Shown one piece after another: positions 8,556-29,538 of a stretch of DNA of 64,000 nt. The stretch is from Polyangiales bacterium (lineage in GTDB: Bacteria > Myxococcota_A > Polyangia > Polyangiales > JADJQN01). The notes beneath the pieces are model-generated. The model was not told the origin of the DNA. It was given only the letters and a program-made list of their open reading frames with translations, and searched no databases. Position 1 is the stretch's first letter, and each line of letters starts with the position of its first letter. The translations under genes were made by a program, and so were the position numbers. The stretch lies in contig CAXNJO010000007.1 of assembly GCA_964202905.1 (NCBI GenBank), positions 64,001 to 128,000 of the forward strand, given 5' to 3'.

Positions 8556-8682
8556 AGTGTATCCGCGTGTCCCGGCGACGGGTGCGCCAATCCGCCCGCG
8601 GAGCCCGTCCTCGATGCGCCGCCGGCGTCGCGCGCAAATCGTGGCCCGTCCATTGCTCTTCCGGAGCGCGTCGGCTTACTCT
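8556..8682. promoter_or_regulatory. Divergent promoter region shared by the kinase and the Tad cluster
   Basis: Minus strand: TACACT (8561-8556) 6 nt before kinase GTG 8549. Plus strand: TTGCTC 8653-8658, N18, TACTCT 8677-8682, 9 nt before flp ATG 8692. Confidence 0.55.
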
Positions 8683-8691
8683 CGGAGACTC

Positions 8692-8952
8692 ATGACCCCA
8701 TCCGCGCTCCCCACCCTGGCCATCGCACGCTCCCTCCGGGCGGTCGTGCGTGCGCGTTTGGAGCGTGCGCGGTCCGCGTCCGCGGCAGGCGAGGGCCTCG
8801 CCGAGAACGAGCGCGGCGTCGCGATGGTGGAGTACGTGACGCTGCTCTGTCTCGTCACCCTCAGCGGTGCGGCGACCGTCGTCGCGCTCGGCGTGCCGCT
8901 CATGCAGCTCTTCCGCTACGTCCAGATGGTCATCGCGATGCCCATCCCCTGA
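8692..8952 (+). CDS. flp: Flp-family type IVc prepilin 1 (86 aa)
   Basis: Class III cleavage site 'ENERG|VAMVEY' with E5-Y6 followed by a hydrophobic helix. Confidence 0.8.
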   Translation: MTPSALPTLAIARSLRAVVRARLERARSASAAGEGLAENERGVAMVEYVTLLCLVTLSGAATVVALGVPLMQLFRYVQMVIAMPIP

Positions 8953-9043: not shown

Positions 9044-9279
9044 ATGGCGAAGAAGACCCCGTCGAAGTCCATCGTGCTCGAGACCCCGAAGAAGGACCTC
9101 CCGTCGCTGCTCCGCGATCAGCGCGGTCTGACCACGGTCGAGTACATCATCATCCTCTGCCTGATTGCGGTCGTGGGCTTCGGCGTCTGGAAGAAGTTCG
9201 GCGCGACGGTCAAGGACGCGCGTCGGCGAGGCGAACGACACGCTCGGCGCGTATGTCCGGCGAAGCCACCACCGAGTAG
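9044..9279 (+). CDS. flp: Flp-family type IVc prepilin 2 (3' end carries two apparent +1 indels near 9218 and 9252)
   Basis: SD GAGGAG 9032-9037; 'RDQRG|LTTVEYIIILCLIAVVGFGVWKKFG'. Removing two bases gives a plausible tail 'VGEANDTLG.MSGEATTE*' ending TAG 9277-9279. Confidence 0.75.
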
Positions 9280-9292: not shown

Positions 9293-9847
9293 ATGCTGCC
9301 TCAGTGGGCCACGGACGGCGCGCGCATCGCCGCGCTCGGGGTCGTCGCAATCGCGGCGTTCACCGACGCGCGGCGTGAGCGAATCCCGAACTGGCTCACG
9401 CTCCCCGCGATCGCGTTCGGGCCTTTGTTCTGGCTGTTCGCGGACTTCTACTGGGGCGGGATCCGCTCGCTCCTCGGCCTCGTCCTCTGCGCCGCGGTCC
9501 CGTACTGGCTGTTCCGGCGCGGGGCGTGGGCAGGGGGCGACGTCAAACTCTTCGCGGCGATCGGCGCCCTCGTGGGCGGTGACTACGGCGGCGTCGGCCT
9601 CGGCATCGAGGCGCTGCTCTTCACGACGATGGCGGCGGCTGCGTACGCCCTCGTGCGGCTCGCCTGGGAGGGCAAGCTGCTGCGCACGCTCGCGAATGCG
9701 TTCTTCCTGCCGCTCAACCCGGTGCTCCCGAAGGCCTGGCGTCGGGAGATCACCCCGGAGCTGATGTCCCGGGTGAGGCTTGGCGTACCCGCGCTGGTGG
9801 GGACTGCGGTCGCCGTCGGGCTCCGTTACCCGACGCTGTGGATGTGA
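9293..9847 (+). CDS. cpaA: A24 prepilin peptidase (CpaA/TadV)
   Basis: Multi-TM; 'AFTDARRERIPNW' and 'AGGDVKL' carry the two catalytic aspartates. Confidence 0.9.
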   Translation: MLPQWATDGARIAALGVVAIAAFTDARRERIPNWLTLPAIAFGPLFWLFADFYWGGIRSLLGLVLCAAVPYWLFRRGAWAGGDVKLFAAIGALVGGDYGGVGLGIEALLFTTMAAAAYALVRLAWEGKLLRTLANAFFLPLNPVLPKAWRREITPELMSRVRLGVPALVGTAVAVGLRYPTLWM

Positions 9848-9942
9848 TGTTCGCGTGCGCGCGTGTGCCGGGCGCCCGAACGGGCGCGGCAGCGCCGGAG
9901 CGCGGGAGGGGCGCCGGTGAGCGGCGCCAAAGGAGGCTCGCG

Positions 9943-10950
9943 ATGACGTTCGCTTCGAGGCGCGACGCCGACCCCCGTGATGACGCCGACCCCCGTGATG
10001 ACGCCGACCCCCGTGATGCAGCGGCGACACGCACTGCGCCGTGGGGGCTCGCGCGCGACGAGCGCGGCGCGGCCTATGTCGAGTTCCTGATCGTCTTCAT
10101 CCCGATCTTCATGATGTTCCTGGGGATGATCCAGGCCGCGATGATGTACGCGGCGAACCTCGTGGTGACGCACGCGGCGAACACCGCCTCGCGCGCAGCG
10201 ATCGTCGTGCTCGACGACGCCGAGTCCGCCTACGGCGACGAGGACCGGAACGACCTCAGCGGGGGCGGCGGCGGCGAGTCCCCCCTCGACAAGGTCGACG
10301 GTTTCCTCGAATGGGCGGGCTTGGGCTCCGCCGCCGCTGCGCCGGCCCGCGAGGCGGGCTCGACCTCGGGCGCGCGGATGAACGCCATCCGCAGCGCGGC
10401 TTCGATCCCACTCCTCGCCGTCTCGCCGTCGATGAGCCAGCTGGTCGGGTCGGAGAGCGTCTACGCCGCGATCGGCGGCAACCCCGCCGAGCGCGGGCTG
10501 ACGGGCGCCGCCGTCTACAACCGCACGGCGGTCGCCGTGACGTTCCCGACCGCGCGCGCCGGCACGAACTACAAGGCGCAGTTCGCCACCAACGAGGACG
10601 TCACCGTCCGCGTGACCTACCTCTTCCACTGCGCCGTGCCGCTCGTGAACCGCATCATGTGCGACGATATTATCGCCCTGAAGACGGGCGTGCCGCTCGC
10701 CGCCGTGCGCGCCCTCGCGGAGCGCACCGCCAGCGGAGACGCCTCACCGGCCGAGATCGCGGCGCTCATCGAGCGTGTGCGTGACGGGCGCGCCCGATTG
10801 CAGCGCGCGAACCCCGGCGTCGCCGAGCTGGACGGTGCCGAGTCGCCCTGGCTCGCCTCCCTCACGGCCGTGACGGGCGCGCGCTTCCTCGTGCTGCGTG
10901 CCGAGGCGACGATGCCCAACCACGGGGCCGCTTACAGCTATGTGGAGTGA
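9943..10950 (+). CDS. TadE-like pseudopilin (large, 335 aa)
   Basis: SD AGGAGG 9931-9936; 'RDERG|AAYVEFLIVFIPIFMMFLGMIQ...HAANTASRAA' TadE N-terminal motif. Confidence 0.8.
   Translation: MTFASRRDADPRDDADPRDDADPRDAAATRTAPWGLARDERGAAYVEFLIVFIPIFMMFLGMIQAAMMYAANLVVTHAANTASRAAIVVLDDAESAYGDEDRNDLSGGGGGESPLDKVDGFLEWAGLGSAAAAPAREAGSTSGARMNAIRSAASIPLLAVSPSMSQLVGSESVYAAIGGNPAERGLTGAAVYNRTAVAVTFPTARAGTNYKAQFATNEDVTVRVTYLFHCAVPLVNRIMCDDIIALKTGVPLAAVRALAERTASGDASPAEIAALIERVRDGRARLQRANPGVAELDGAESPWLASLTAVTGARFLVLRAEATMPNHGAAYSYVE
9964..10017 (+). repeat. Perfect 18-bp tandem repeat x3 (GACGCCGACCCCCGTGAT; DADPRD) in the prepilin leader
   Basis: Copies at 9964-9981, 9982-9999, 10000-10017. Confidence 0.95.
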
Positions 10951-10954
10951 CGCG

Positions 10955-12314
10955 ATGAGCACCCGACCCGCGCCGACGTCCGCTCCCGAATCCGCCGCCG
11001 CCGGCCGCCCCGGTCTCGTCGCCGACGAGGGCGGCGCGATCATGGTCATCGGCGTGTTCATGGCCGTCCTGCTGGTCGGCTTCATGTACTACCTGATCGG
11101 CGTCGGCGAGACGATCTTCTACCGCGAGCGCATGGCCGACGCGGCCGACGCGGGCGCGTGGGCGGCAGCCGTGATGCATGCGCGCGGGATGAACGCGATC
11201 GTGCTCATCAACATGATCATGGCTGCCATCGCTGCGGTCGTGCTCGCGATCGGCGCGGTGCTCTTCATCATCGACGTGGGCATCGCGATCGCGACGGCGC
11301 TCGTGGCCTCGGTGGTCACCGCGCCCATCGGGGCGCCGGTGCTCAGCTGCGCTCACCCCGATCCGGCCGGTCGTGAACACCATCCATCAGGCCGCGCAGC
11401 GCTTCGCGAATGCCGTCCTGCCCGTGCTCAACAAGGCCGCGACCGGCGTGAAATACGCGACGCCCTGGATCGCGCAGGTGAAAGTGCTGAACGTCGGCGA
11501 GTCGTACAAGCCGCCCGTCGACGTGGGCATCTTCGTGTCGAAGACGCTCGTCGACGGGCTGCCCGTCGAGGACGACGAGTGCAAGGTCCTCGAGGATCGC
11601 GGCATCAAGTACATCGAGGTCCTGATCGGCAACGCGCTCGGCAACATCCCGATCCTGAGCACCGTGATGGGGTGGGTGGGCGGCCTCGCGGCGAAGGCCG
11701 GCAGCGCGGTCTACGGCGGCGTCTGCGGGAGCGGCGGAGGAACCGCCGGCGCCGACGTGGTCTCGGACGCCGTCGGGGCTGCGACGGACGCGGCCATGGA
11801 AGAGGCGGGCTGCAACGACGACCCGCCCCCGGACCCGATGCCCGAGGGCTGCGACGCGGAGCTCCCCGAGACGAGCGGCGTGACCGCGCCCGCGAGCACC
11901 TCGACCGGCTCCGACGGCAAGGGCCCGAAGAAGGTCAAGGACGACTGCAACCTCGGCGACGAGTGCTTCCAACTCCGCGCCATCATGGTCGGCACGCCCG
12001 GCTATGAGAAGACGATGCGCGGCGTGCAGATCGCGAACTGGGGCCACGAGAACGAGACCGGCTCCATGTACACCCAGATGGCGAACCTCGGCCGCGGCTC
12101 GCTCGCGCAGGCGGAGTTCTACTGGGACAAGGGCGACGAGGACGCGCAGGAGATGCGCGACGACTGGATGTGGGAGATGAACTGGCGCGCGCGTCTGCGT
12201 CGGTTCCGCGTCCCGGCTGACTCGCTGCTCGGTGACGCCTGCACCGCGGGGGGCGGCTTCTGCGACGCCATCCTCGGGAGCGCGGACATGATCAACGCGG
12301 TTATCGTGCACTGA
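10955..12314 (+). CDS. TadG-like pseudopilin/tip protein with Cys-rich C-terminal domain (single +1 indel near 11348)
   Basis: 'ADEGG|AIMVIGVFMAVLL...MADAADAGAWAAA' Tad motif. Deleting T11348 joins ORF 10898 to ORF 11373 (...APVLSALTPIRPVVNTIHQ...), giving about 452 aa with 8 Cys in the C-terminal part. Confidence 0.75.
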
Positions 12315-12911: not shown

Positions 12912-13910
12912 ATGAGCGTGCGTCGACCATCGTCCATGTCGCTCGGCGCGCTCGTCTGGGCGCGCATGAAGAGCAACGCCATTGAGTACGTGCCACGGTT
13001 CGCGCGGGTCGGGGCGCTGCTCGCGGCCCTCTTCGCGATCGCCATCGTCGTCGTTGGGCACCGCGCGAAGGCCGACCTGCACGAGGTGATGATGGGCTTC
13101 GGCGCGCAGATGATGCGCTACGAGGGCGCGCAGCGGCAGGGCGCGCCGCGCCAGCTCTATCTGAACGGCGAGCGGATGCTGCTCGCGACGGCCTCGACGA
13201 CGCACAGCCTCGACGCCGTGCTCGACTACTACGAGCGCCGCTGCATGGCCCGCGACGGCGCGCTCGAGCAGGAGCTCATGCGCGTGAGCGGCGCGGAGGC
13301 GTCGCGACTCCCCGTCGACGAGCGCCTCATCGACGCGACGATCCGCCACGACACGGGCGGTCGGGGTTATGTCGCGTGCCTCGACATGGGCGAGGACGCG
13401 ATCGGACTCACCGAACTCAGCGCGCGCCTCAAGTCCTTCTCCGACACGGGCAACCTCGGGGACGTCGGCCACCTCCGTTACGTCTACGTGACCGACGAGA
13501 CCACCTCGCGGCACGTCGTCACCTTCTGGACCGAGGGGCGCTTCGAGCTGCGCAAGGTCGTGCCCGAGACGGGCGATGCGCCGGGCCGCGACGTGGACGC
13601 GTTGCCACGCCCTGCGGGGTCGCGGCGGATGCTCTCCGCGTGGGAAGACGGCCAGCCGCAGTCGCTCACGGTCTACGCCTTCGCCCCGCAGGGCGAGGAG
13701 GCGCTCGAGCGCTTCTACCGTACGGAGCTCCCCCGACGCGGCTGGCGCGTGCACTCGCCGCGCGATCTCGCCGAGGGCTCGCTGCAGCGCCCCCCCGAGC
13801 TCGACGATGTGCGCGTGCTCGGCGCCGAGCGCGCGGGCCGCAGCGCCTTCCTCGTGCTCGGCGAGGACGCCGAAGGACACGGCACGCTCACCGTCCTGAC
13901 GGCGCGCTGA
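12912..13910 (+). CDS. Hypothetical membrane-anchored protein within the Tad cluster
   Basis: Good GC3 codon bias, N-terminal TM (VGALLAALFAIAIVVVG), located between pseudopilins and cpaB; no family recognised. Confidence 0.7.
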   Translation: MSVRRPSSMSLGALVWARMKSNAIEYVPRFARVGALLAALFAIAIVVVGHRAKADLHEVMMGFGAQMMRYEGAQRQGAPRQLYLNGERMLLATASTTHSLDAVLDYYERRCMARDGALEQELMRVSGAEASRLPVDERLIDATIRHDTGGRGYVACLDMGEDAIGLTELSARLKSFSDTGNLGDVGHLRYVYVTDETTSRHVVTFWTEGRFELRKVVPETGDAPGRDVDALPRPAGSRRMLSAWEDGQPQSLTVYAFAPQGEEALERFYRTELPRRGWRVHSPRDLAEGSLQRPPELDDVRVLGAERAGRSAFLVLGEDAEGHGTLTVLTAR

Positions 13911-14004: not shown

Positions 14005-14829
14005 ATGAATCGCAAGGCGCTGATCGCGGCGGGCGTCGCGGCCCTCGCGGGGCTGGGGATGCTTTATCTGTACATGAAGCGCTTCGAGGCCGAGGCCTCA
14101 GGCGGCGCGCCGGTCATGGTGCTCATGGCCACGCAGGACATCCCGCTCGGCACCGCGATCACGCGGCAGATGGTGGGCGCGCGGCCGCTGCCGAGCGCGT
14201 ACCTCGAAGAGCGACACATCCGCGCGTCGGACGCCGAGCGCGTCTACGGCGTGCGCGTCTCGATGGGCGTGAAGTCGAACGAATCCGTGCTTTGGACGGA
14301 CCTCGCGACGACGAGCGAGCAGCGGCGTGACCTCTCGGCGCTCGTGCGGAACGGCCAGCGCGCGATCACGGTGCGCGCCGGGTTGACCTCCTCCTTCGGC
14401 GGACTGCTCCGGCCGGGCGACCGCGTCGACGTGCTGCTCACCGCGGACCGGCCCGGCTCCGCGCTCGCGGGCGTGGGCGATCTCTCCTCGGCGCGCGTGA
14501 CGATCCCGCTGCTGCAGAATCTCCTCGTGCTCGCGGTCGGCCGCGACACCGGTGGCGAGCAGGCGCAGGGCGCGGCGCGCACGGGCGCCCGCGCGAACGG
14601 CCAGCCCAACCAGGTCACGCTGAGCGCGACGGTCGCGCAGTCGCAGACGCTGACCTACGCCGGTGATCGCGGTGAGCTGACGCTCATCCTCCGCAACCCC
14701 GACGACATCGCCATCCTCGACGGGCTGCCCGAGACGAGCGCCCGCGACATCCTCGAGCCCGAGCGCCGCGCGACCCTGCTGCGTCGCGAGCGCCCCGAGA
14801 CCGCCCCGGAGATCGAGCGTGTCCAATAG
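14005..14829 (+). CDS. cpaB: Flp pilus assembly protein CpaB/RcpC
   Basis: N-terminal TM, SAF domain 'VLMATQDIPLGTAIT', 'GQRAITVR...GGLLRPGDRVDVLLT', 'LLQNLLVLAVG', 'GELTLILRNPDD'. Confidence 0.93.
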   Translation: MNRKALIAAGVAALAGLGMLYLYMKRFEAEASGGAPVMVLMATQDIPLGTAITRQMVGARPLPSAYLEERHIRASDAERVYGVRVSMGVKSNESVLWTDLATTSEQRRDLSALVRNGQRAITVRAGLTSSFGGLLRPGDRVDVLLTADRPGSALAGVGDLSSARVTIPLLQNLLVLAVGRDTGGEQAQGAARTGARANGQPNQVTLSATVAQSQTLTYAGDRGELTLILRNPDDIAILDGLPETSARDILEPERRATLLRRERPETAPEIERVQ

Positions 14830-14833
14830 CCCC

Positions 14834-16090
14834 ATGCGCCGCGTCCTCAGCCACCTCCACCTCCTCGTGCTCGCGCTCGCGCTCGCCGGCCTCGCGGCGG
14901 CACCCTTCGCCGCGCCGCGCGCCGCGTCCGCGCAGCAGATGCAGCGCCGTGAGCTCGAGCTGCAGATCGGCGAGCAGACGAGCCTCCCGGCCGACGGCGT
15001 CCGCAGCTACTCGGAAGGCGTACCCGGCATCGCGGACGTCCGCGTCTCGCGTGAGACGGGGCAGTTCATCGTGCTCGGCCAGCGGGCCGGCGCGACCTCG
15101 CTCCTCCTCATCATGGAGGATGGCAGTCAGGTCCAGTACCGCATCGTCGTCAAGGGCGCCGACGCGGCGGCGACGGGGATCTCGGAGCGCGACAACGTCC
15201 GCCTCGACTTCTACTTCGTGCAGGTCTCGGACGCGTACTCCCACCGCATCGGCATCGGCTGGCCGGCGTTCATCGGAGGGCAGGGCGTCGCGCGGTTCGC
15301 GGGTGACTTCGATCTCACGACGGCGTCGCTGACGAGCGCGCAGCTGCTCGTGACGAACCAACCCCTGCCGCGGCTCGACCTGCTGCAGGAGTCCGGTTGG
15401 GCGCGCATCTCGCGGCAGGCCGCGGTCATCACCGCGAACGGCAACGAGGCCATCTTCAACAGCGGCGGCGAAGTGAACGTGCAGGCGACGCGCGGCATCG
15501 CCGGCGCGGTGCAGGCGATCAGCTTCGGCAGCCAACTCACCGTGCTCCCCAACTACGACAAGCAGTCGGGGCGCGTCGAACTGAAGATCGTCTCGGACGT
15601 CAGCGACCTCACGGATGACCGCGGCACCGGGATCCCCGGTCGCACCGTCGCGCACCTCGAGACGCTCGTGAACCTCGAGATGGGCCAGGCGATCATGCTC
15701 GCGGGCGTGCAGGCCGACTCCGAGGGCAGCTCGCGCACCGGGCTGCCGGGGCTCTCGCAGATCCCGATCCTCGGCGTGCTCTTCGGCACGCACGCGGCGC
15801 GGCGCGAGCAGACGCGGAACGTGCTCTTCATCGTGCCGACGGTCGTCGACTCCGTGAGCGCGCGCTCGCGCGACGCCATCGCAGACGCGATGCAGGTGTA
15901 TCAGGATTTCAGTGGCGGCGCGGAGGACGTGCTCCTCTTCGAGCCCATCCACAGCGGGGGGAGCCGCGCGCCGATGGACGTCGGTGGCGGCGACGAGGGC
16001 AGCCGGGAGCAGCCGCCATCCGGACGCGACGCGTCTCCGCCCGGGCGTCCTGCAGGCGGGCGTCGCGGGGCCACGCGCCCCGGCGGCTGA
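14834..16090 (+). CDS. cpaC: Secretin, CpaC/RcpA type
   Basis: Signal peptide, pilus-formation N-domain ('IADVRV..FIVLGQRAGATSLLL'), secretin C-domain 'NGNEAIFNSGGEV' and 'GLPGLSQIPILGVLFG'. An alternative GTG start lies at 14819. Confidence 0.88.
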   Translation: MRRVLSHLHLLVLALALAGLAAAPFAAPRAASAQQMQRRELELQIGEQTSLPADGVRSYSEGVPGIADVRVSRETGQFIVLGQRAGATSLLLIMEDGSQVQYRIVVKGADAAATGISERDNVRLDFYFVQVSDAYSHRIGIGWPAFIGGQGVARFAGDFDLTTASLTSAQLLVTNQPLPRLDLLQESGWARISRQAAVITANGNEAIFNSGGEVNVQATRGIAGAVQAISFGSQLTVLPNYDKQSGRVELKIVSDVSDLTDDRGTGIPGRTVAHLETLVNLEMGQAIMLAGVQADSEGSSRTGLPGLSQIPILGVLFGTHAARREQTRNVLFIVPTVVDSVSARSRDAIADAMQVYQDFSGGAEDVLLFEPIHSGGSRAPMDVGGGDEGSREQPPSGRDASPPGRPAGGRRGATRPGG

Positions 16091-16094: not shown

Positions 16095-17804
16095 ATGCTG
16101 CTGTCGATCGAGATCTCGGACGGCACGGTCGAGAACCTCGCGATCCACGACACCCCGCAGGTCGTGATCGGGCGCGACGCGGGCTGTCACGTCGTGCTCC
16201 CCTCGCCGGAGGTGTCGCGTCGGCACTGCCGCCTCGACGTCACGCCGCAGGGCGTGACGATCACCGACACCTCCGCCAACGGCACGATCGTCGGGAACGA
16301 GCGCGTCGTGCAGTCGACGGTGCTGCTGCAGCCCGAGGTCCCGTTCCGCGTCGGGCCCTACGTCGTGCGCCTTCGCGGCGGTCAGGCGCGTCGGCCGACG
16401 CCGCCGCAGGCGCCCGCGCCGCCCCCCGTCGCGCCCGCGCACGGCCTCCCCACCGCGCCCGCCGCGCCTTTTCGGGCGCCGCAAGCCCCGGCCCCGAGCG
16501 CGGACGATCCGCCTTGGCGCCACCGGAACGGCACGAAGGGCGTCTCCGTCGAGGTGCGCCGGCGCCTGCACCGGATGCTCCTCGACCACCTCGATCTCGC
16601 GACGCTCGATCGCACCAAGATGGACGAGCGGGTCATGCGCCCGAAGGTGCTCGACGCCCTCAAGCGCATCATCCAGACGATCGCGCGCGACCTGCCGCCG
16701 GGGACGGACCTCGCGCAGCTGATCGAGGAGATGAGCGACGAGGCGCTCGGGCTCGGTCCGCTCGAGCTGCTCCTCGCCGACGACTCCGTGAACGAGATCA
16801 TGGTCGTCGACCCGTCGACCATCTTCGTCGAGCGCGGCGGCCGCATCGAGCACACGCCGCTCCGTTTCACCGACGACGAGAGCGTGCGCGCCGTCATCGA
16901 GCGCATCGTGACGCCGCTCGGCCGCCGCATCGACGAGTCGACTCCCCTCGTCGATGCGCGCCTCAAGGACGGCTCGCGCGTCAACGCGGTCATCAAGCCG
17001 CTCGCGCTGCGCGGCGCGTGCATCACGATCCGCAAGTTCGCGCGCTCCGCGCTGAACCTCGAGGACCTCGTCCGCTTCGGCGCGCTCACCGAGCAGATGG
17101 GGCGCTTCCTCGTGCGCGCGGTGACGGCCCGCAAGAACATCGTCATCTCCGGCGGTACCGGCTCGGGCAAGACCACGCTGCTCAACGTCCTGTCGGGCGC
17201 GATCCCCGCCGAGGAGCGCGTCGTCACGATCGAGGACGCCGCTGAGCTGCGGCTCGTGCAGCCGCACGTCGTGTCGCTCGAGTCGCGCCCGGCGAACATG
17301 GAAGGCAAGGGCGAGATCACGATCCGCGACCTCGTGAAGAACGCCCTCCGCATGCGCCCCGACCGCATCCTCGTCGGCGAGTGCCGCGGCGGTGAGGCGC
17401 TCGACATGTTGCAGGCGATGAACACGGGCCACGACGGCTCCATGACGACGACGCACTCGAACAGCCCGCGCGAGGCCATCGCGCGGCTCGAGACGCTCGT
17501 GATGATGAGCGGGCTCGACCTCCCGTCGCGCGCGATCCGCGAGCAGATCTCGCAATCGGTGCACGTCGTGCTCCAGCAGGCGCGGCTCTCGGACGGCTCC
17601 CGCAAGATCACGAGCATCGCGGAGGTGACGGGGATCGACCCGGACAGCGGCGAGGTCATCGTGTCCGAGATCTTCCGCTTCGAGCGCACCGGGACGGGCA
17701 AGGGCGGCAAGGTGCTCGGCGAGTTCCGCGCGACGGGCTTCCTGCCCTCGTTCCTCGACGAGTTCATCAAGCGGGGCCTCGTGCGGGAGGGCGACTACCT
17801 GTGA
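16095..17804 (+). CDS. cpaF: CpaF/TadA pilus ATPase with N-terminal FHA domain
   Basis: FHA 'IGRD..VSRRHC..DTSANGT', Pro-rich linker, Walker A GGTGSGKTT, 'TIEDAAEL', 'LRMRPDRILVGECRG', His box 'TGHDGSMTTTHSN'. Confidence 0.93.
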   Translation: MLLSIEISDGTVENLAIHDTPQVVIGRDAGCHVVLPSPEVSRRHCRLDVTPQGVTITDTSANGTIVGNERVVQSTVLLQPEVPFRVGPYVVRLRGGQARRPTPPQAPAPPPVAPAHGLPTAPAAPFRAPQAPAPSADDPPWRHRNGTKGVSVEVRRRLHRMLLDHLDLATLDRTKMDERVMRPKVLDALKRIIQTIARDLPPGTDLAQLIEEMSDEALGLGPLELLLADDSVNEIMVVDPSTIFVERGGRIEHTPLRFTDDESVRAVIERIVTPLGRRIDESTPLVDARLKDGSRVNAVIKPLALRGACITIRKFARSALNLEDLVRFGALTEQMGRFLVRAVTARKNIVISGGTGSGKTTLLNVLSGAIPAEERVVTIEDAAELRLVQPHVVSLESRPANMEGKGEITIRDLVKNALRMRPDRILVGECRGGEALDMLQAMNTGHDGSMTTTHSNSPREAIARLETLVMMSGLDLPSRAIREQISQSVHVVLQQARLSDGSRKITSIAEVTGIDPDSGEVIVSEIFRFERTGTGKGGKVLGEFRATGFLPSFLDEFIKRGLVREGDYL

Positions 17805-18667
17805 ACGTCTCGCGCGCCACGGATTGGCTCGGCTATGGCGGCATCGCGCTGCTCGTCCTCGGCCTGACGGTCGGTGTGACGCTCGTGCTGTTCAACCCGC
17901 AGAGCGGGCCGCGCCGGGCGTATCGCGATTACGAGGCGACGCTCGAGCGGGAGGTGCGTTTCCTGCTCTACCGCACGACGGGCGCGCGCATCGCGCGGAC
18001 GCAGCTCGCCGCATCGGTCAGCCTGCTCGTCGCCGCCGCGTTCCTCGAGGATTTGCTGCTCGCGCTGCTCGCGCTGCCGGTCGCGCTCCTGCCGCTCGCG
18101 TGGCTGCAGTCGAAGCACGCGCGGCGCGTGCTGGTGATCGAGCTGCAGCTCGACTCGTGGCTGCAGCTGCTCGCGAACAGCCTCAAGGCCACGCCGTCGC
18201 TCGGCGAGGGCATCGCGTCGAGCGCGAAACTGATACGCGCGCCGCTCGGCGAAGAGCTCGACCTCGTGCTGAAGGAGATCGCGCTCGGCACGCCGCTCGA
18301 TCAGGCGGTGATGAACATGAGCGTGCGGATCGGCTCGCGCCCCGTGTCGGGCGCGCTCGCGATCATCCTCGTCGGGCGTCAGACGGGCGGTGATCTCACA
18401 CGCATCCTCGAGGAGGGCGCCGCGACGCTGCGCGAGATGTCGCGCCTCGAGGGCGTCGTGCGGACGAAGACGGCCGAGGGCAAGTCTCAGGCGTACGTCC
18501 TCGGCGGGATCCCCTTCGTGCTGCTCGGCGCGCTCTACATGGTCGACCCGTACTGGCTGCAGCCGCTCGCGGAGACGACCCTCGGCTACATCATCATCGC
18601 GGTCGCGACCTCGCTCTGGCTCGCGGCGATCGTCCTCGCGCGCAAGATCCTCGCGGTCGACGTCTAG
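17801..18667 (+). CDS. tadB: TadB inner-membrane platform protein (T2SSF family)
   Basis: 'LANSLKATPSL', 'PLGEELDLV..E..LG', 'QTGGDLTRILE', 'KTAEGKSQAYVL'; GTGA overlap with cpaF. Confidence 0.88.
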   Translation: MNVSRATDWLGYGGIALLVLGLTVGVTLVLFNPQSGPRRAYRDYEATLEREVRFLLYRTTGARIARTQLAASVSLLVAAAFLEDLLLALLALPVALLPLAWLQSKHARRVLVIELQLDSWLQLLANSLKATPSLGEGIASSAKLIRAPLGEELDLVLKEIALGTPLDQAVMNMSVRIGSRPVSGALAIILVGRQTGGDLTRILEEGAATLREMSRLEGVVRTKTAEGKSQAYVLGGIPFVLLGALYMVDPYWLQPLAETTLGYIIIAVATSLWLAAIVLARKILAVDV

Positions 18668-18681
18668 CCTCGCGGAGACCC

Positions 18682-19599
18682 ATGCTGTTTCAGCCCTCCA
18701 CGCTCACCGTCCTCGTCGGCCTCGTCTCGCTCGGCCTGTTCGCGCTCGGCGTGGCGTCCGCGGTCTTCGTGCTCGCGCGGAACCCGCCTGCTGTCCCGCC
18801 GCGCCTCGGCGCGCGGGGCTTGCGGCGCGCGCAGGCGCTCGCGGACGGCGGTCTCTTCGCGGTCGTCGAGCCCGTGATGCGCGTGACCGCGGGTTGGATC
18901 TCGCACCTGCCGATCGCGCCTCGGCGTCACGCGATCGACGAGCAGCTCGTGCACGCGGGCGATTGGCTCGGTCTCACGGCGGACGAGTACATCGCGCTCA
19001 CGAGCCTCTCGGGCGTGTTCTTCTCCATCCTGGGGCTCTCGATCATCACGATGCTCGAGCTGCCCGCGATGCTCGCGTTCTTCTTCGCGGGGCTCGGGCT
19101 CGTCCTCCCGTACATGCGGCTCACCGGTGAGATCGCGCGGCGTTTCAAGGAGGTCAACCGCTCGCTCCCGGCGGCCATCGATCTCGCGGCGCTGTGCATG
19201 AACGCGGGCCTCGATTTCCCGGGCGCGCTGCGGCAGTTCGTCGACAAGTCGGCCTCACGGCAGGACACGCTCGTCCTCGAGTTCGGCCGCATCCTGCAGG
19301 AGCTCGAGCTCGGGCGGACGCGGCGTCAGGCGCTCGAGAACTTCGCCGAGCGCTGCCCGACGGACGCCGTGCGTGATTTCGTCGGCTCGGTGGTGCAGGC
19401 CGAGGAGAAGGGCAACCCGTTGGCGCAGGTGCTGCGAATCCAGGCGGGCATGCTGCGCATGCGGCGCAGCATCATGGCCGAGGAGAACGCGGCGCGTGCG
19501 GCCGTCATGATGATGGGGCCGCTCATGCTGATTTTCTGCGCGATCATCATCATCCTGCTCGGCCCATTCATCGTGAACTCGATGGGCAAGGGGGTCTGA
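18682..19599 (+). CDS. tadC: TadC inner-membrane platform protein (T2SSF family)
   Basis: 'LPAAIDLAALCMNAGLDF..AL', 'ELELGRTRRQAL', 'QAEEKGNPLAQVLRIQA..R..AEENA'. Confidence 0.9.
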   Translation: MLFQPSTLTVLVGLVSLGLFALGVASAVFVLARNPPAVPPRLGARGLRRAQALADGGLFAVVEPVMRVTAGWISHLPIAPRRHAIDEQLVHAGDWLGLTADEYIALTSLSGVFFSILGLSIITMLELPAMLAFFFAGLGLVLPYMRLTGEIARRFKEVNRSLPAAIDLAALCMNAGLDFPGALRQFVDKSASRQDTLVLEFGRILQELELGRTRRQALENFAERCPTDAVRDFVGSVVQAEEKGNPLAQVLRIQAGMLRMRRSIMAEENAARAAVMMMGPLMLIFCAIIIILLGPFIVNSMGKGV

Positions 19600-19605
19600 A
19601 CGAAC

Positions 19606-20472
19606 ATGGACACCTACGTCGAGGTCCTGCGCGCAGACGGAAGCTCCGAGCGTCACCGCATCGAGGGCGAGCAGATGACGCTCGGCCGCTCGCCGGCGGC
19701 CGGCATCACGGTCACCGGCGTCGACGAGCTCGAGCCCGAGCACCTGCTCGTCGCCCCGCGCTCGGACGGCTGCTGGGTGGCGATCGCGAAGGGCGCGCGG
19801 GTCGGCGCCGTCGTGCGGGGCGCGCCGTTCGAGCACGGGCTGCTCGCGTGGGGCTCGGAGATCGAGATCGGCTCCATGCGCTTGCGTGTGAGTGACGTCG
19901 TCCCGGGCGCGAAGAAGGAGCAGAAGGTCAGCACGCCGGTCGCGCTCGCCGCCCTCGTCGGGATCGGGCTCGTCGGGTGGATGCTGCTGTCGGACAATGG
20001 GGGCGAGCTGCCGGAGACCGCGGCGACGGCGCCTCCGCTCTTCGGCGCGCTGCCGACGTGTGGCTCCGACGGGCCCGCGGCGTTGCACGGCGCGCGCGAG
20101 GCCGCCGAGGCCGCGGCCGCGAAGAGCGAGCGCTACGTGTTCAGCGCACAGGACGGCGTGACGGCGGTCTCGCTCTACGGGCGCGCGCAGGTGTGCTTCG
20201 GACAGGCGGGAGCCGCGGCCGCCGCGCGCCGGATGTCGACCGAGCGTGAGGCGATGACGCGTCGGATCGACGAGGACTACAAGACGCACCGCCTGCGCCT
20301 CGAGCGCTCGCTGCACCACGCGCGCTTCCCCGAGGCGCTCGTCGAGGCGCACGCGCTGCGGGCACTCACGCGGCACCTCGAGGGGCCGTACGTCGACTGG
20401 CTCATGCTGCTCGAGCGGCGCCTGCAGATGCTCGTGGACACCGCGAACCTGCGGGCCTCGAGCGGGCAGTGA
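19606..20472 (+). CDS. Degenerate-FHA, single-TM protein with helical periplasmic domain
   Basis: 'MTLGRSP...LEPEH...WGSEIEIG' FHA-like N-terminus, TM 'VALAALVGIGLVGWMLL', helical C-terminus with two Cys. Confidence 0.7.
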   Translation: MDTYVEVLRADGSSERHRIEGEQMTLGRSPAAGITVTGVDELEPEHLLVAPRSDGCWVAIAKGARVGAVVRGAPFEHGLLAWGSEIEIGSMRLRVSDVVPGAKKEQKVSTPVALAALVGIGLVGWMLLSDNGGELPETAATAPPLFGALPTCGSDGPAALHGAREAAEAAAAKSERYVFSAQDGVTAVSLYGRAQVCFGQAGAAAAARRMSTEREAMTRRIDEDYKTHRLRLERSLHHARFPEALVEAHALRALTRHLEGPYVDWLMLLERRLQMLVDTANLRASSGQ

Positions 20473-21320
20473 CGGCGCCGGGCGCGATGGCCTCCCGACC
20501 GCGCCGTCTGTTCGCGCCGTGCGTCGCGGCCGTGCTGACCGTCGCGGCGTGCGGGGGCGCGGGCGCGGGCGCGCCGGAGGGCCCGCCGCCGACGGATCCG
20601 GTCGCGGAGGTGGGGGCGCAGCGCCTCTTCGACACGGGGATCGCGGCGGCCGCGCAAGGGGACTACGTGCGCGCGGAGCAGTACCTCGCTGCCGCGGGCG
20701 CGCGCGGGTACGAGGAGGCGGCGGTCATCGGGCCGCTCGTGCGCGTGTGCGTCGCGGCCTCGCGGCTCCGGCAGGCGCTCGTCTACGCGCAGCCCTACCT
20801 CCGGCGGCACGCGACGGACTGGCGGCTGCGCTTCGTCGTCGCGGCGGTGCTGCTCGGGCTCGAGCGGGTCGACGATGCGCGCGCGGAGCTCGAGCGCGTG
20901 ATCGCCACCGCGCCGGAGGCCCCGGAGCCGTACTTCGTGCTCGGTGCGCTGCTGCGCGACCGGCTCCGCGACGACGCCGCTGCGCGGCCGCGCTTCGAGC
21001 GCTACCTCGCGCTCGTGCCGGAGGGTGCGCACTCGGACGAAGCGCGCGTCGCGCTCGCGTCGCCGCTGCCCGCGCAAGGGCCCCCGCAAGTGACCCCGCA
21101 GGACCCGACGCTCCAGCCCGCGCCGACCCCGGTGGCTCTGCCGGCGCCAGCGGCGCAGCCGGTTCAGGCGCCAGCGGCGCAGCCGGTTCAGGCGCCAGCG
21201 GCGCAGCCGGTTCAGGCGCCAGCGGTGCGGGCCGCCGTGCCCCCCGCCGCGCCGCCGGGACCGGTGCGGCTCCCCGCGCGCACGCGCCCGACGCCTCCCA
21301 CCGAGACAGGTACGCCGTGA
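20469..21320 (+). CDS. TPR lipoprotein (TadD/pilotin-like) with Pro/Ala-rich tail
   Basis: Lipobox-like 'VLTVAAC', TPR helices ('APEAPEPYFVLGALL', 'FERYLALVPEG'). Confidence 0.7.
   Translation: MTAPGAMASRPRRLFAPCVAAVLTVAACGGAGAGAPEGPPPTDPVAEVGAQRLFDTGIAAAAQGDYVRAEQYLAAAGARGYEEAAVIGPLVRVCVAASRLRQALVYAQPYLRRHATDWRLRFVVAAVLLGLERVDDARAELERVIATAPEAPEPYFVLGALLRDRLRDDAAARPRFERYLALVPEGAHSDEARVALASPLPAQGPPQVTPQDPTLQPAPTPVALPAPAAQPVQAPAAQPVQAPAAQPVQAPAVRAAVPPAAPPGPVRLPARTRPTPPTETGTP
21144..21225 (+). repeat. Perfect 24-bp tandem repeat, 3 copies plus a partial copy (GCGCCAGCGGCGCAGCCGGTTCAG; APAAQPVQ)
   Basis: Copies at 21144-21167, 21168-21191, 21192-21215, plus a 10-bp partial copy. Confidence 0.95.
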
Positions 21321-22441
21321 TCCCGAAAGAAGTCTTCGAGCAGACGCTGCTCTCGTTCCTCGAGCCGATCCGGCCCTTTCTCGACGACGCGTCCGTCAGC
21401 GAGATCATGATCAACGGGCCCTTCGAAATCTACATCGAGAAGAAGGGCCGGCTCCACAAGACCGACGCGAAGTTCGCGTCGCAGCACGCGCTCGAGGCCG
21501 CGCTGCGGAACCTCGCGCAGTACGTCGGGCGGCACATCGACGAAGAGCGCCCGATCCTCGAGGCGCGCCTCCCCGACGGCTCCCGTGTCGAGGCGGTGCT
21601 GCCGCCGGCCGCGCCCGACGGGCCGAGCGTCGCGATCCGCCGCTTCTTCAAGGAGACGCTCACCGTGAAGCGGCTCCTCGAGTTCGGCTCGTTCACGCAG
21701 GACGCGGCCGACTGCATGCACGCGATCGTCGCCTGCAAACAGAACGTCATCGTCGCGGGCGGCACCGGCTCGGGCAAGACGTCGCTCCTCAACGTGCTGT
21801 CGTCCTTCGCCGCCGAGGACGAGCGCGTCGTGGTGATCGAGGACTCGCGCGAGTTGCAGCTGCAGCGGCCACACGTCGTGCAGCTCGAGGCGCGCCCGCC
21901 GAACGCGCGGGGGCGCGGCGCGGTGTCGATCCGCGATCTCTTCAAGGCGACGCTGCGCATGCGCCCCGACCGCATCGTCGTCGGCGAGATCCGCGGCGCC
22001 GAGGCGCTCGACCTGATCCAGGCGATGACCTCGGGCCACGGCGGCTGCCTTTCGACCGTGCACGCGAGCTACCCGATCGACACGTGCAACCGCCTCGAGA
22101 CGATGGCGCTCATGGCCGACGTGGGCCTGCCGCTCTTCGCGCTGCGCGCGCAGCTCGCGAGCGCGGTCGACGTGATTGTGCAGACCTCGCGCCTCGCGGA
22201 TGGCTCGCGCTGCGTGACGCACCTGACCGAGGTGCGAGGCTACGATCCGCAAGGCGGTTATCGGCTCGCGGATCTGTTCGTCCGCGAGTACGATGGCAAG
22301 GACGCGACGGGCAAAGTGCTCTCGCGCTTCGTGCCGACGGGCGAGCTCCCGAAGAGCCTCGAGATGATCCGCGCGCACGGCCACGAACTGCCGCAGTCGA
22401 TGTACGACGCGGCCGAGCGGCGCGGCGCGCACCGCGACTGA
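21317..22441 (+). CDS. cpaF: Second CpaF/TadA-family ATPase (374 aa, no FHA)
   Basis: GTGA overlap with the upstream stop; 'FLDDASVSEIMING', Walker A GGTGSGKTS, 'VIEDSREL', 'LRMRPDRIVVGEIRG', 'SGHGG..STVHA'. Confidence 0.92.
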   Translation: MIPKEVFEQTLLSFLEPIRPFLDDASVSEIMINGPFEIYIEKKGRLHKTDAKFASQHALEAALRNLAQYVGRHIDEERPILEARLPDGSRVEAVLPPAAPDGPSVAIRRFFKETLTVKRLLEFGSFTQDAADCMHAIVACKQNVIVAGGTGSGKTSLLNVLSSFAAEDERVVVIEDSRELQLQRPHVVQLEARPPNARGRGAVSIRDLFKATLRMRPDRIVVGEIRGAEALDLIQAMTSGHGGCLSTVHASYPIDTCNRLETMALMADVGLPLFALRAQLASAVDVIVQTSRLADGSRCVTHLTEVRGYDPQGGYRLADLFVREYDGKDATGKVLSRFVPTGELPKSLEMIRAHGHELPQSMYDAAERRGAHRD

Positions 22442-22496
22442 CGGTCGCTCCGCAATCCGACGCATCGCGCGCGAACTTGGCTAAGATGCGGGCCGC

Positions 22497-24014
22497 ATGG
22501 TCGACCCGCGCCACGGTCCCCAGGTCCGGCCCGCTCCGACGTCCTGGGCGCGCGTGCGCCTGCTGAAGGGCGACTCCGCGGGCGGGCTGTGGGACGTCTC
22601 GAGCGACATCCCCGAGGCCCGCATCGCCATCGGCAGCGATGCGGGCTGCGGTTGGCTGGTGCGTGGCAGCGGCGTCGCGCCATTCCACTTCGAAGTCTAT
22701 TGGGACGGCACCGTGCTCTGGGTCGGCAACAGCGCGGGCGCGCCGGACGTGCGCCTCGATGGTGAGCCGCTCGGCGATTGGCGTCCGATCAGCGGCCGCG
22801 CGCGGATCGAGTTCGGGCGGGCGGCCATGCTGGTCGAGGCGTCCGACGCGGTGGCGCGCGCGTCGGTCGTGCCGCAGCCGCGGGACTCTCAAGCCCCGTT
22901 CGAGAGCGAGAACACACGCATCGCGGCGCCGCGGGACGAGCGGCGCGAGGTGTACGCCTCCGGGAACAGCGCCCTGCAGGAGGTGCCGCCGCTCAGCGAG
23001 CTCGAGGCGAAGCCCTCGCGTGGAGTGCATGCGGCGTTGGGGGCGTCCGGCGACGGGGGCGCGACGCGCGTCGTCTCGTTGGCCGAGGCCGAGGCGGGCC
23101 GTGCGGCGCCGGTCGCGGCCCCGCGGGTCGGCGTGGGGGCGGGCGTGCGGCGCGTCGAGGAGCCCCCGCCGATCTCGGAGGAGGCGACGCGCCTCGGCGT
23201 CTTCGCCGGCGCGGGGCAGGCGAGCGCGCTCCCGCCGGGCGTCTCTGCGGCCTCGCGAGCGGGGGGCGGTCCGGGGGGCGGCGCGGTGGGCGTGGCGTTG
23301 GGGGCGCCGAGCGGGGCGCCTTCGCCTTTCGGCCCGTCGGTCGCGGCGCCGTCCGCTTTCGACGCGCCGGGCGCGGGGGCAGGGCTGCGCGGGCCTGTCG
23401 CGGGCGCGGCGAGCCCGTTCGCGGCGCCGCCGCCGGTGGCGGCTGATCCGTCGTCGATCGCGTTCGCGCGGGTCGGCGAGAAGCTGAAGGGCGGGCTCGG
23501 CAGGCCCAAGCTGTCGCAGCCGCCGCGTACGTGGCTGCTGCTCGCGCTGGTCGTGGCCGTGCTCGTGGTGTTCGTGCTCGACGCCTTCGACCCGACGCCG
23601 GAGCCTCCGGCCGGGTCTCCCGCGGTGGCCACGCAGCCCGCGGCCTCTCCGCCCGGGACGGCGGACGCCGGGTTGGCGGCGGTCCCCGCTTTGGCGCGGA
23701 TCGGGGCAGGCCTCGCCGTGGGACCGGGCGGGCTGGTCGCGGGCGGCATGCCGCTCGCGGTGGCCGACGCGGGGGTCGCCGCGCCGTCCGGGGACACGCC
23801 GCCCGGTGCGCCGGTGCCCGCGACGCCGGAGCGCCAGGCCGCGGACGCGCTGATCGCCGGTCGCTACCGCGAGGCGCTCCCGCTCTATCAGGCGCTCGCT
23901 GCGGCGAACCCGCAGAACCCCACCTTCTCCCAGATCGTCGTCGTGCTCGAGCGGCGCGTGCGGGCCGCGTGTCGCGACGGGCTCACCCCGGAGGGCACGC
24001 AGTGCGAGCCGTGA
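22497..24014 (+). CDS. Degenerate-FHA + Gly/Ala/Pro linker + TM + C-terminal TPR-like protein
   Basis: 'IAIGSDAGC..VAPFH..VRLDGEPL..RIEFG', TM 'WLLLALVVAVLVVFVL', 'AADALIAGRYREALPLYQAL', terminal Cys pair; TAAGAT 9 nt upstream of the ATG. Confidence 0.65.
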   Translation: MVDPRHGPQVRPAPTSWARVRLLKGDSAGGLWDVSSDIPEARIAIGSDAGCGWLVRGSGVAPFHFEVYWDGTVLWVGNSAGAPDVRLDGEPLGDWRPISGRARIEFGRAAMLVEASDAVARASVVPQPRDSQAPFESENTRIAAPRDERREVYASGNSALQEVPPLSELEAKPSRGVHAALGASGDGGATRVVSLAEAEAGRAAPVAAPRVGVGAGVRRVEEPPPISEEATRLGVFAGAGQASALPPGVSAASRAGGGPGGGAVGVALGAPSGAPSPFGPSVAAPSAFDAPGAGAGLRGPVAGAASPFAAPPPVAADPSSIAFARVGEKLKGGLGRPKLSQPPRTWLLLALVVAVLVVFVLDAFDPTPEPPAGSPAVATQPAASPPGTADAGLAAVPALARIGAGLAVGPGGLVAGGMPLAVADAGVAAPSGDTPPGAPVPATPERQAADALIAGRYREALPLYQALAAANPQNPTFSQIVVVLERRVRAACRDGLTPEGTQCEP

Positions 24015-24739
24015 ACCCGCCGCTGGGCGCGCCGCTCCTCACGCACTTCGCCGTGCTGCTCGGCGTCGCGTCCGTTCTCGTGGTCGGCGCCGCGTGCGAC
24101 GACCCGCCTCCGCCGCCCGAGTACCGCGTCTCCTTCACCGCGCTCGCCGATGCGGCGGCCCTCGGCGGCGTCGAGATCGCCGTCGCCGGGCGCCCGCTGG
24201 GGGTGACCGGGCCGGACGGGACGCTGCGCGCGAACCTGCGCGGGCGCGAGGGAGCGGTCGTGGCGTACCGCGTCAAGTGTCCGGAAGGATTCAGGGAACC
24301 GGAGCAGTCGCCGCCTCTGACCTTGCGTCGCTTCCGCGGCCTCGACCCGGCCGCGGCCGCGCGGGGCATCGAGCTCAACATCCAGTGCCGGCCGGCCGAG
24401 CGCCTCGCGGCGGTCGTCGTGCGGGCGGGCGGCATCCCCAACCTGCCGGTGCTGATGCAGGGGCAGCCCGTCGCGGTCACCGACGCGAGCGGCGTCGCGC
24501 ACCTGCTGCTGAAGCTGCCGCCGAACACCAGCTTCACGATGACGGTCGACACGCGCGCCAACCCGCGCCTCGTGCCGGCGAGCCCGACGCAGCCCTTCGT
24601 CGTGCCGGACGCAGACGACGTCCTCGTCTTCGACGCCCCGCTCGCCGAGCAGCAGGCGCCCACGAAGCGGCGCCGGGCCGTGCGCCGCGCGCCCGTGTTC
24701 ACCGGGCCGGTGCGGATCCCCTCGTCCGGTCGGCGCTGA
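24011..24739 (+). CDS. Lipoprotein with two transthyretin/carboxypeptidase-regulatory-like beta repeats
   Basis: GTGA overlap; lipobox-like 'VVGAAC'; repeated 'GxPxxVTxxxG' motifs (GRPLGVTGPDG, GQPVAVTDASG). Confidence 0.65.
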   Translation: MNPPLGAPLLTHFAVLLGVASVLVVGAACDDPPPPPEYRVSFTALADAAALGGVEIAVAGRPLGVTGPDGTLRANLRGREGAVVAYRVKCPEGFREPEQSPPLTLRRFRGLDPAAAARGIELNIQCRPAERLAAVVVRAGGIPNLPVLMQGQPVAVTDASGVAHLLLKLPPNTSFTMTVDTRANPRLVPASPTQPFVVPDADDVLVFDAPLAEQQAPTKRRRAVRRAPVFTGPVRIPSSGRR

Positions 24740-24819
24740 GCGCCTCGGCCCGGGGCGTGCGCCGCCGGCGGGCCGCGCCGAGAACTTGGAGCGACGGCGG
24801 TCGCGTAGTACGCGGGGCC

Positions 24820-25836: not shown

Positions 25837-25843
25837 TGGCGGC

Positions 25844-25863
25844 GCGCCCGGCGCACCGGGCGC
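25844..25863. terminator. GC hairpin between convergent genes (possible terminator, no U-tract)
   Basis: GCGCCCGG-cgca-CCGGGCGC, 8-bp perfect stem. Confidence 0.3.
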
Positions 25864-25885
25864 ACGACCCGAAGCGTCCGGCGCG

Positions 25886-28150: not shown

Positions 28151-28161
28151 GGGGACCGGGC

Positions 28162-28839
28162 CTACAGCCCTTCGAGCTTGCGCTTGAGGGCAGAGAGCTC
28201 GTCGTCGACCTTCGCGCCCCCTGCCTCGCGCTCGAGCCTCCGGAAGCGCGCGTCGACGTCGGCGCGCGCCGGATCCTCGAGCACTTCGTGCGCCTCGACC
28301 TCGGACTCGAGCGTCTCGATGCGCCCGCCCATGCGCTCGAGCTCTCCGAAGGCCGACCCTTCGCCGAAGCGCTGGCCGCCCTCGAGCGGGCGCGTGTCGC
28401 GGGCGCGGCGGACCTGCGCGGCGAGCGACGTCTTGCGGCTCTCGATCTCGTCGATCTTGCGCTCGACGTTCTCGAGCGTCGCCTTCATCTCGTCGGCCGC
28501 GCTCGCGGCGCCCGCGGACTGCCGCTCGGCGTCGGCCGCATCCCGTTCGGCGCGGCCCTTGCGCTTGAGCGCCTCGCGCGCGAGCGAATCGTCGCCGTTG
28601 CGCAGCGCGAGCACGGCCTTCTCCTCCCACGCGCGCGCCTCGGCGTTCAACTCGGCCGTCTTCTTCTCGAGGCGCTTCGCCGTGCCGAGCGTCGTGATCA
28701 GCTCCTGACGGGCGCGCTTCACTTCGTCCTTCATGTCGAGGACGGTCTGGCCGATCAACTTCTCCGGGTCCTCCGCCTTCTCGACCAGCGCGTTGAGGTT
28801 CGACTTGATGACGTTGTTGAGGCGGCTGAACATGCCCAT
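28162..28839 (-). CDS. pspA: PspA/IM30 family protein
   Basis: 'MGMFSRLNNVIKSNLNALVEKAEDPEKLIGQ..DM', 'WEEKAVLAL..DDSLAREAL', 'VDDELSALKRKL'. Confidence 0.93.
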   Translation of the reverse strand: MGMFSRLNNVIKSNLNALVEKAEDPEKLIGQTVLDMKDEVKRARQELITTLGTAKRLEKKTAELNAEARAWEEKAVLALRNGDDSLAREALKRKGRAERDAADAERQSAGAASAADEMKATLENVERKIDEIESRKTSLAAQVRRARDTRPLEGGQRFGEGSAFGELERMGGRIETLESEVEAHEVLEDPARADVDARFRRLEREAGGAKVDDELSALKRKLEGL

Positions 28840-28925
28840 GTCCGCCAAGCCTACACCCGGTCCGGGGTCGATCAACCGCGCGTCCGTGCGCCGGGCCGGA
28901 GCGCGGCGGGGCCCGTGGGGCTCCG

Positions 28926-29507: not shown

Positions 29508-29538
29508 TTCTCGCGTCTCCGGGTCAGGCTTGCGCCCC

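Follow-up and report, generated by a model that had tools for sequence, protein, structure and literature searches.

How a single Tad ATPase both extends and retracts its pilus is an open question. Tad systems have been classed as machines with a single inverting motor, the hexamer of which is proposed to flip (Whitfield 2026, bioRxiv 10.64898/2026.02.24.707734), and the minimum architecture of this motor, CpaF, has been given as a three-helix bundle, an N-terminal domain (NTD) and an ATPase domain, with three classes, I-III (Yen 2025, PMC12019362). The Kil system of Myxococcus xanthus uses an FHA-fused ATPase, KilF, stated to be its single ATPase (Seef 2021, PMC8460266) and viewed as the predicted motor of both polymerisation and depolymerisation (Herrou 2025, PMC12075869); an FHA-CpaF fusion is therefore already published, as KilF and as class III CpaF. 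ATPase duplications are listed for PilB/PilT and PilT/PilU and none for Tad in the available part of Denise 2019 (PMC6668835), while the presence of several complete tad clusters with one CpaF each is common and distinct from two motors per locus (PMC10934763). Here we describe a Kil-like Tad cluster of a Polyangiales-type myxobacterium which encodes two intact CpaF ATPases, named F1 and F2, and which lies in a window of 64,000 nucleotides (assembly GCA_964202905.1, contig CAXNJO010000007.1, positions 64,001 to 128,000). The cluster is a real, conserved two-motor variant of the Tad/Kil machine that is apparently undescribed so far; the literature searched, which mostly excluded subscription papers, does not describe any Tad locus with a second CpaF that lacks the bundle. 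The two motors are as follows.

16095..17804, + strand: F1, 569 amino acids; FHA, disordered linker, three-helix bundle and CpaF core; KilF-like class III CpaF; likely extension motor
21317..22441, + strand: F2, 374 amino acids; short CpaF in which the three-helix bundle is missing, the catalytic residues are intact and the extension face is remodelled; candidate retraction motor

Each frame is open, and alignment of the two proteins revealed 45% identity over 336 amino acids, with the Walker A, Asp box, Walker B and His box present in F1 and F2. A Pfam FHA match was obtained in F1 alone (residues 23-84). The AlphaFold model of F1 (pLDDT, the predicted local distance difference test score, 81.5) showed the FHA domain, a disordered linker, three helices (152-165, 178-199 and 206-218) and the core, while that of F2 (pLDDT 92.7) showed a single N-terminal helix (4-14), the core and two C-terminal helices; both terminal helices were present in the F2 model against one in the F1 model. 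The GTG start of F2 overlaps the TGA stop of the preceding TPR gene (GTGA). This junction is bridged by contigs of two lake-water studies (X1 record 7, 21196-21854, with 0 other letters, and X5 record 31), and the overlap is conserved in 84 of the 100 loci with a recognised TPR gene, a further 24 of 124 loci having no TPR match. Since overlaps of four bases are seen at four of the cluster's junctions, the overlap between the TPR gene and F2 is not special in itself. The original prediction, made from the nucleotide sequence, that the cluster carries two intact but diverged motors, of which the first alone has an FHA domain and the second is joined through GTGA to the TPR gene, was thus borne out on each point, and F2 lacks the three-helix bundle as well.

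Both proteins possess the NTD and RecA-like core, Walker A and B, Asp box, His box and arginine fingers of the CpaF/TadA family, and Caulobacter crescentus CpaF was the best sequence and fold match for both motors, the best fold matches of F2 being Caulobacter CpaF; among named relatives, those nearest to F2 carry the label Sandaracinaceae or Polyangiales. The three-helix bundle with a glycine hinge shared by the classes I-III of Yen 2025 is present in F1 and missing from F2, and F1 displays the whole class III/KilF order of FHA, disordered region, three-helix bundle, NTD and ATPase. F2 scored 45.1 bits against the PilT/PilU model TIGR01420, whose cut-off is 319.1, and lacks the AIRNLIRE motif, which a separate PilT of the same genome carries. 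Hence sequence and fold make F2 a CpaF, not a PilT, and it falls below the published minimum CpaF architecture. It does resemble PilT/PilU in function-related traits, having no N1 domain and, judged by its residues, an active ATPase. A VirB11/TrbB protein of type IV secretion was rejected as an identity (221.6 against 249.95 and 212.6 against 304.55 bits), and no type IV secretion genes occurred among the 48 open reading frames (ORFs) scanned.

Residues were counted in 126 F2 sequences, chosen by similarity, 99 F1 and 22 canonical CpaF sequences, with 7 outlying rows excluded, and are given in Caulobacter crescentus numbering (F2 position + 133). The catalytic K287, E312, R347, E357, H382 and R223 and the adenine-binding R431 were found in 126/126 F2, R359 in 125/126 and R217 in 120/126, and from these residues F2 is predicted to be catalytically active. 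The extension interface of CpaF comprises G204, R205, R206, D208, E331 and G334 (Yen 2025, PMC12019362). At this face R206 was present in 22/22 canonical CpaF, 99/99 F1 and 6/126 F2, and position 331 was E or D in all canonical (22/22) and F1 (99/99) sequences and in 4/126 F2, of which 108 had K or R instead. The hinge residue G149 followed the same pattern (22/22, 98/99 and 10/126, respectively). In Caulobacter, hinge or loop mutants of CpaF made no pili, with a caveat about expression, and a bundle-less CpaF still purified and assembled in vitro (Hohl 2024, PMC11300603).

The retraction-linked face of CpaF has been defined by Whitfield 2026 (bioRxiv 10.64898/2026.02.24.707734). Its beta13-beta14 turn was kept in F2 (R425 in 126/126, D428 in 117/126 and G429 in 126/126), R431 counted above likewise belongs to this face and is invariant, and P386 was kept at the N-terminus of alpha11 (118/126), and the turn together with the C-terminal motif was intact in the F2 of the window and in most F2, being missing from 11/11 copies of one genus, g11. 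The tail following TGxxP was at least 25 amino acids long in 94/126 F2 and at most 20 in 92/99 F1. When divergence between F1 and F2 was ranked by windows along the alignment, alpha5 and loop 8 fell in the top 4%, the N-terminus of alpha11 in the top 13% and the pore loop in the top 16%, and the beta13-beta14 turn was below average.

The loss of the predicted extension surface with retention of the catalytic parts makes a pull-back motor the likely role of F2. We propose, with a probability of roughly 45%, that F2 is a dedicated PilT-like retraction motor which evolved separately inside the Tad lineage, F1 extending the pilus. F1, in which the extension interface is retained in full, would dock its N-terminal face (three-helix bundle, alpha5/loop 8 and pore loop) on TadB/TadC when a phosphothreonine signal engages its FHA domain, F2 would dock on the platform by its C-terminal face and retract the pilus, and the hexamers of F1 and F2 would swap on the same platform as those of PilB and PilT do. 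The division of labour suggested with the original prediction gains support at the sequence level from the changed extension face and the retained beta13-beta14 turn of F2. The docking face of F2 on TadB/TadC is predicted from the lack of the three-helix bundle and from the charge-reversed pore loop. PilT likewise has no N1 domain. Docking by the C-terminal face is the retraction orientation proposed for both Caulobacter CpaF and PilT, and the three-helix bundle would clash with the platform in the retraction models (Whitfield 2026, bioRxiv 10.64898/2026.02.24.707734). In its wider form the proposal, which we advance tentatively and give somewhat less than even odds, states that a widespread Tad/Kil subtype independently evolved the two-motor design of PilB/PilT. 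The bifunctional, invertible CpaF would have been split into two motors, one for extension, which is phospho-gated, and one for retraction, which has no bundle and would be a fourth CpaF class.

Several observations weigh against a dedicated retraction motor. The orientation model comes from one preprint, with AlphaFold 3 models and mutants (Whitfield 2026, bioRxiv 10.64898/2026.02.24.707734). At the extension face G204 and G334 are largely kept in F2 and D208 is kept in 94/126, position 205 stays basic (R205 in 52/126, otherwise mostly K), and the conserved positions lost were not significantly enriched at this face (5/15 as against 22/123 elsewhere, Fisher p=0.17). Alpha5 of F2 has an invariant residue of its own, Q201 (126/126), pointing to a new role or packing rather than plain loss. 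Residue R387, the loss of which blocked retraction in Caulobacter (Whitfield 2026, bioRxiv 10.64898/2026.02.24.707734), is Ile in the F2 of the window and Arg in its F1; as Arg occurs in similar shares of F2 (44/126) and F1 (41/99), with 15/22 in canonical CpaF, R387 was discarded as a marker of a retraction motor. The beta13-beta14 turn is also retained by F1, which may still work in both directions. In genus g11 the C-terminal motif is absent from 11/11 F2 examined, of which 8 have intact catalytic motifs, and such truncated yet catalytically intact copies are not well explained by a role in retraction only. In the other three g11 copies (L200:5498-6505, L201:12566-13789 and L202:4847-6175) residues of Walker A or of the His box are gone and the accompanying F1 is intact. 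Decayed copies are under-counted among the 126 F2, because these were chosen by similarity.

Part of this evidence would fit a mixed F1/F2 hexamer, for example one alternating over a threefold TadB/TadC platform, in which F2 would give active sites and arginine fingers and adjust the direction or rate, the main contacts with the platform being left to F1. All catalytic residues acting in trans are kept in F2, alpha5/loop 8 of F2 is conserved in a new state (N198, Q201 and D329), the C-terminally truncated copies retain their catalytic sites, and F1 and F2 are strictly co-inherited (see below). Natural proteins with two or three tandem CpaF cores were found as well (P0125-P0135); altered pore loops occur in the later cores of P0125, P0130, P0131 and P0134, which suggests built-in asymmetric rings, and these four pair a canonical CpaF core with an altered one. 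An F2-clade core was found in 0 of such tandem fusions, however, and direct F1-F2 fusions were absent among the same 150 representatives. Alternation also fits poorly with a rotary model, in which each subunit would meet both platform proteins (our reading of Yen 2025, PMC12019362), and homohexamers are reported for both PilT and PilU (PMC6821130). We regard the mixed hexamer as the main rival, though a rather unlikely one.

The phylogenetic tree constructed with FastTree placed F2 in one clade (support 0.989, 126 of 254 sequences), and a quick IQ-TREE run recovered the same clade with a Shimodaira-Hasegawa-like approximate likelihood ratio (SH-aLRT) of 99 (30 of 85 dereplicated rows). As the root was not resolved, no order of duplication is claimed. 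The clade spans at least 10 families of the phylum and also plasmids of Rhizobium. In the own genome of the window (G000), F1 and F2 are the sole close CpaF copies. Distant CpaF-like paralogs were noted on contig C5 of this genome (356647-357462) and in L045-L047 and L050; they include proteins with a degenerate Walker A (L049 and L050) and short stand-alone proteins outside the F2 clade (L045-L047).

Whether both paralogs recur together in one locus was examined in a survey of 41 genomes (the own genome and 40 relatives). An F2-type match was found in 33 of the 41, every F1-positive genome of the 41 was also F2-positive, and the order cpaB-cpaC-F1-tadB-tadC-FHAx-TPR-F2 was kept in nearly all paired loci fetched, FHAx being an FHA-like membrane protein; frameshifted copies in draft assemblies comprised one F1 and two F2. 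Distances of F1 and F2 over 89 paired loci were correlated with a Mantel r of 0.86, the best permutation reaching 0.29, with the qualification that the loci are kin and not independent. The dN/dS ratio (nonsynonymous to synonymous substitutions) against a same-genus relative, one pair, was 0.16 for F2 and 0.125 for the F1 core. In four genomes in which the whole locus is duplicated (G005, G010, G030 and G040) both motors are doubled too. The shared gene order across the order, the distance correlation, the dN/dS ratio and the paired duplication all speak against a separate remnant cluster.

TadC was matched in 32 genomes. In 25 of these it occurs exactly once, and each of the 25 has both an F1-type and an F2-type motor, indicating that the two motors usually share one platform. 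This bears on the notion that F2 drives a second machine with its platform elsewhere in the genome. Such a platform could be sought in a second, partial Tad set on contig C5 of G000 (18879-30516), which consists of tadE, tadG, orf332, cpaB, tadB, tadC and two FHA-like genes and gave no ATPase, secretin or TPR match, so that it would need to borrow both motor and secretin from the cluster of the window. With both motors in 25 of 32 genomes that have just one TadC of this type, and with duplicated whole loci carrying both motors twice, this explanation is largely refuted and has a very small chance of being right.

Among the best 80 loci of the genome collection, which include Labilithrix luteola, Chondromyces apiculatus and Kofleriaceae, 62 had at least 6 kb of upstream sequence; F1 was present in 55 of these and absent nearby in 7. 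In the phylum sample of 261 genomes, where 7 candidates only were scored per genome, a match was obtained for 56 of the 69 genomes of the same order, leaving 13 without one; two or more copies were seen in 54 of the 56, and the other two gave a second, diverged copy on closer search. Other families of the phylum possess F2-type genes as well, in some cases at a distance from F1. Conversely, F2 was not found in F1-bearing G042, G077, G121 and G130, which belong to other families and are drafts 93-96% complete. The suspicion that the second ATPase might be patchily present thus holds in part, given the truncation in g11, its three decayed copies and the several F1-bearing genomes of other families in which F2 was not found.

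The same exceptions are what one would expect if F2 were a largely redundant or dispensable paralog held by operon linkage. The decay of Walker A and His box in three g11 genomes with intact F1 and the four F1-bearing drafts just named agree with it, as do the description of M. xanthus Kil with a single ATPase (Seef 2021, PMC8460266) and the dispensability of rcpA2-tadA2 in Bdellovibrio (bioRxiv 10.64898/2026.07.08.737194). The dN/dS of F2, 0.16 against 0.125 for the F1 core in the one pair compared, argues otherwise, as do the spread of a single clade over at least 10 families and Rhizobium plasmids, its clade-specific invariant residues, and the retention of F2 even when divergently transcribed from, or distant from, F1; redundancy is accordingly judged improbable. 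The N-terminal motif of TadC/TadB does not follow the status of F2: locus L048, which has F1 only, retains it intact, and so do loci in which F2 is decayed.

Absence of F1 nearby in 7 of the 62 loci also speaks for F2 as an accessory ATPase. In this role it would not power the platform itself; it would be a PilU-like booster stacked on F1, or else a motor for FHA-like membrane proteins or secreted cargo. F2 travels as a module with TPR and FHA-like genes, the TPR gene, secretin and F2 are jointly absent from two partial second loci (L048 and the C5 set), and some F2 bear cNMP, MshEN or FHA regulatory domains. Yet F2 persists where TPR or FHAx matches are lacking (L036 and L038, and Rhizobium L171 and L174) and no cargo was identified, and we consider this role unlikely, if less so than redundancy. 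L036, L038 and L106 are two-motor loci in which no secretin or TPR gene was recognisable between the core genes.

The plasmid search revealed the F1/F2 pair in R. etli Mim1 and R. johnstonii 3841 (RL_RS32645 and RL_RS32605). The Rhizobium loci (L171:1036-13113 and L174:2908-15101) have the order flp-peptidase-tadE-tadG-cpaB-long ATPase-tadB-tadC-FHA, with the F2-type gene transcribed divergently, and no secretin was seen in the stretch shown of either. The long ATPase aligns end to end with F1, a degenerate FHA-like region included. Its loop 8 and pore loop are diverged, and an adenylate/guanylate cyclase gene adjoins the Tad locus in both L171 and L174.

The pThr (phosphothreonine)-binding FHA motif has the pattern G-R..S-x-x-H..N-G. 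A Pfam-type FHA match was obtained in 87/99 F1 frames and the pattern is kept in 84/99, while the flanking FHA-like membrane proteins never show it. FHA domains are not confined to F1 across the clade, as F2-type cores with an FHA domain of their own were identified in P0144, P0142, P0146, P0171 and L148:7651-10107, the first combining cNMP-binding, MshEN and FHA domains on an F2-type core. The suggested division into a phospho-regulated and a constitutive motor accordingly agrees with this locus and does not extend to the F2 type as a whole.

The cluster runs in the order flp, flp, cpaA, tadE, tadG, tadF-like, orf332, cpaB, cpaC, F1, tadB, tadC, FHA-like, TPR, F2, FHA-like and lipoprotein, and neighbouring genes beyond the start of tadF are separated by -11 to 94 bases. 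No match to CpaE/TadZ was found among the window ORFs scanned, and a scan for promoters and terminators gave nothing above chance. Its other genes are listed below.

8557..8952, + strand: second Flp-like pilin; true start uncertain
9044..9260, + strand: Flp pilin; end approximate; apparently fused to cpaA through one extra base near 9214
9293..9847, + strand: CpaA prepilin peptidase (A24)
9838..10950, + strand: TadE-like minor pilin
10898..12314, + strand: TadG-like minor pilin; two frames in this assembly, one frame in the same-genus locus L011
12314..12898, + strand: probable TadE/F-like minor pilin, from its N-terminal pattern
12912..13910, + strand: orf332, conserved protein of no recognised family
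14005..14829, + strand: CpaB/RcpC
14819..16090, + strand: CpaC/RcpA secretin
17801..18667, + strand: TadB/CpaG inner-membrane platform protein (Pfam T2SSF)
18682..19599, + strand: TadC/CpaH inner-membrane platform protein; N-terminal region basic and conserved
19606..20472, + strand: FHAx, FHA-like membrane protein; canonical pThr motif absent in 82/82 homologues
20469..21320, + strand: TPR protein with a lipobox-like signal, probably pilotin-like; its stop overlaps the F2 start
22497..24014, + strand: FHAy, low-complexity membrane protein, putatively FHA-like from its sequence pattern, with no Pfam match; canonical pThr motif absent in 37/37 homologues
24011..24739, + strand: conserved predicted lipoprotein, end of the cluster

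Compared with L011, the frame is broken in the flp pilin at 9214 and in tadG at about 11350-11380. The extra base near 9214 is missing from contigs of three runs and is probably an assembly error or a strain difference. A Ser/Thr kinase gene (5621-8549, - strand), apparently split over two frames, is divergent from the cluster and is followed downstream by a membrane segment and a repeat domain; a kinase also adjoins the cluster in L011. As the genome has 85 kinase-like matches, this adjacency was not used as evidence for phospho-control.

The locus contradicts two published generalisations, that there is one motor per Tad system and that the three-helix bundle belongs to the minimum architecture. 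A paralog in which one face is altered, and the catalytic core and most of the other face are kept, makes the idea of ATPase inversion directly testable. If the proposed retraction role of F2 is right, the pair would illustrate a route to dedicated retraction motors of the PilT kind. It would also provide a natural test of inversion in Polyangiales that can be cultured and in tractable Rhizobium strains, which carry it on plasmids; R. johnstonii 3841 and R. etli are hosts in which single mutants are easily made.

In relation to known systems, the cluster resembles Kil in having a Tad core, an FHA-fused ATPase, several additional FHA and TPR proteins, no CpaE/TadZ in the locus, none being listed for Kil in the available part of its description, and a myxobacterial host. 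It differs from Kil by the second ATPase clade and by a core gathered in one cluster, the Kil gene tables available listing one ATPase only; the comparison was made by published description. Several TadA paralogs in a predator are also known from Bdellovibrio bacteriovorus (tadZA, tadA2 and tadA3), where, unlike here, they lie in separate loci, tadA2 having its own secretin and being dispensable and tadA3 being isolated (bioRxiv 10.64898/2026.07.08.737194). Bd0110/Bd0111 was considered as a precedent for two ATPases (Capeness 2013) and set aside, since Bd0110 is listed as TadB in supplement 2 of Seef 2021 (PMC8460266). The named catalytic residues of Caulobacter crescentus CpaF are conserved in F1 and F2; one bifunctional motor serves Caulobacter, whereas here F1 is of class III and F2 lies outside classes I-III. 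With PilB/PilT(/PilU) the pair would share a way of working, a long motor with an N1 domain and a short motor without it on one platform, although F2, unlike PilT, is a CpaF that fails TIGR01420 and has no AIRNLIRE motif.

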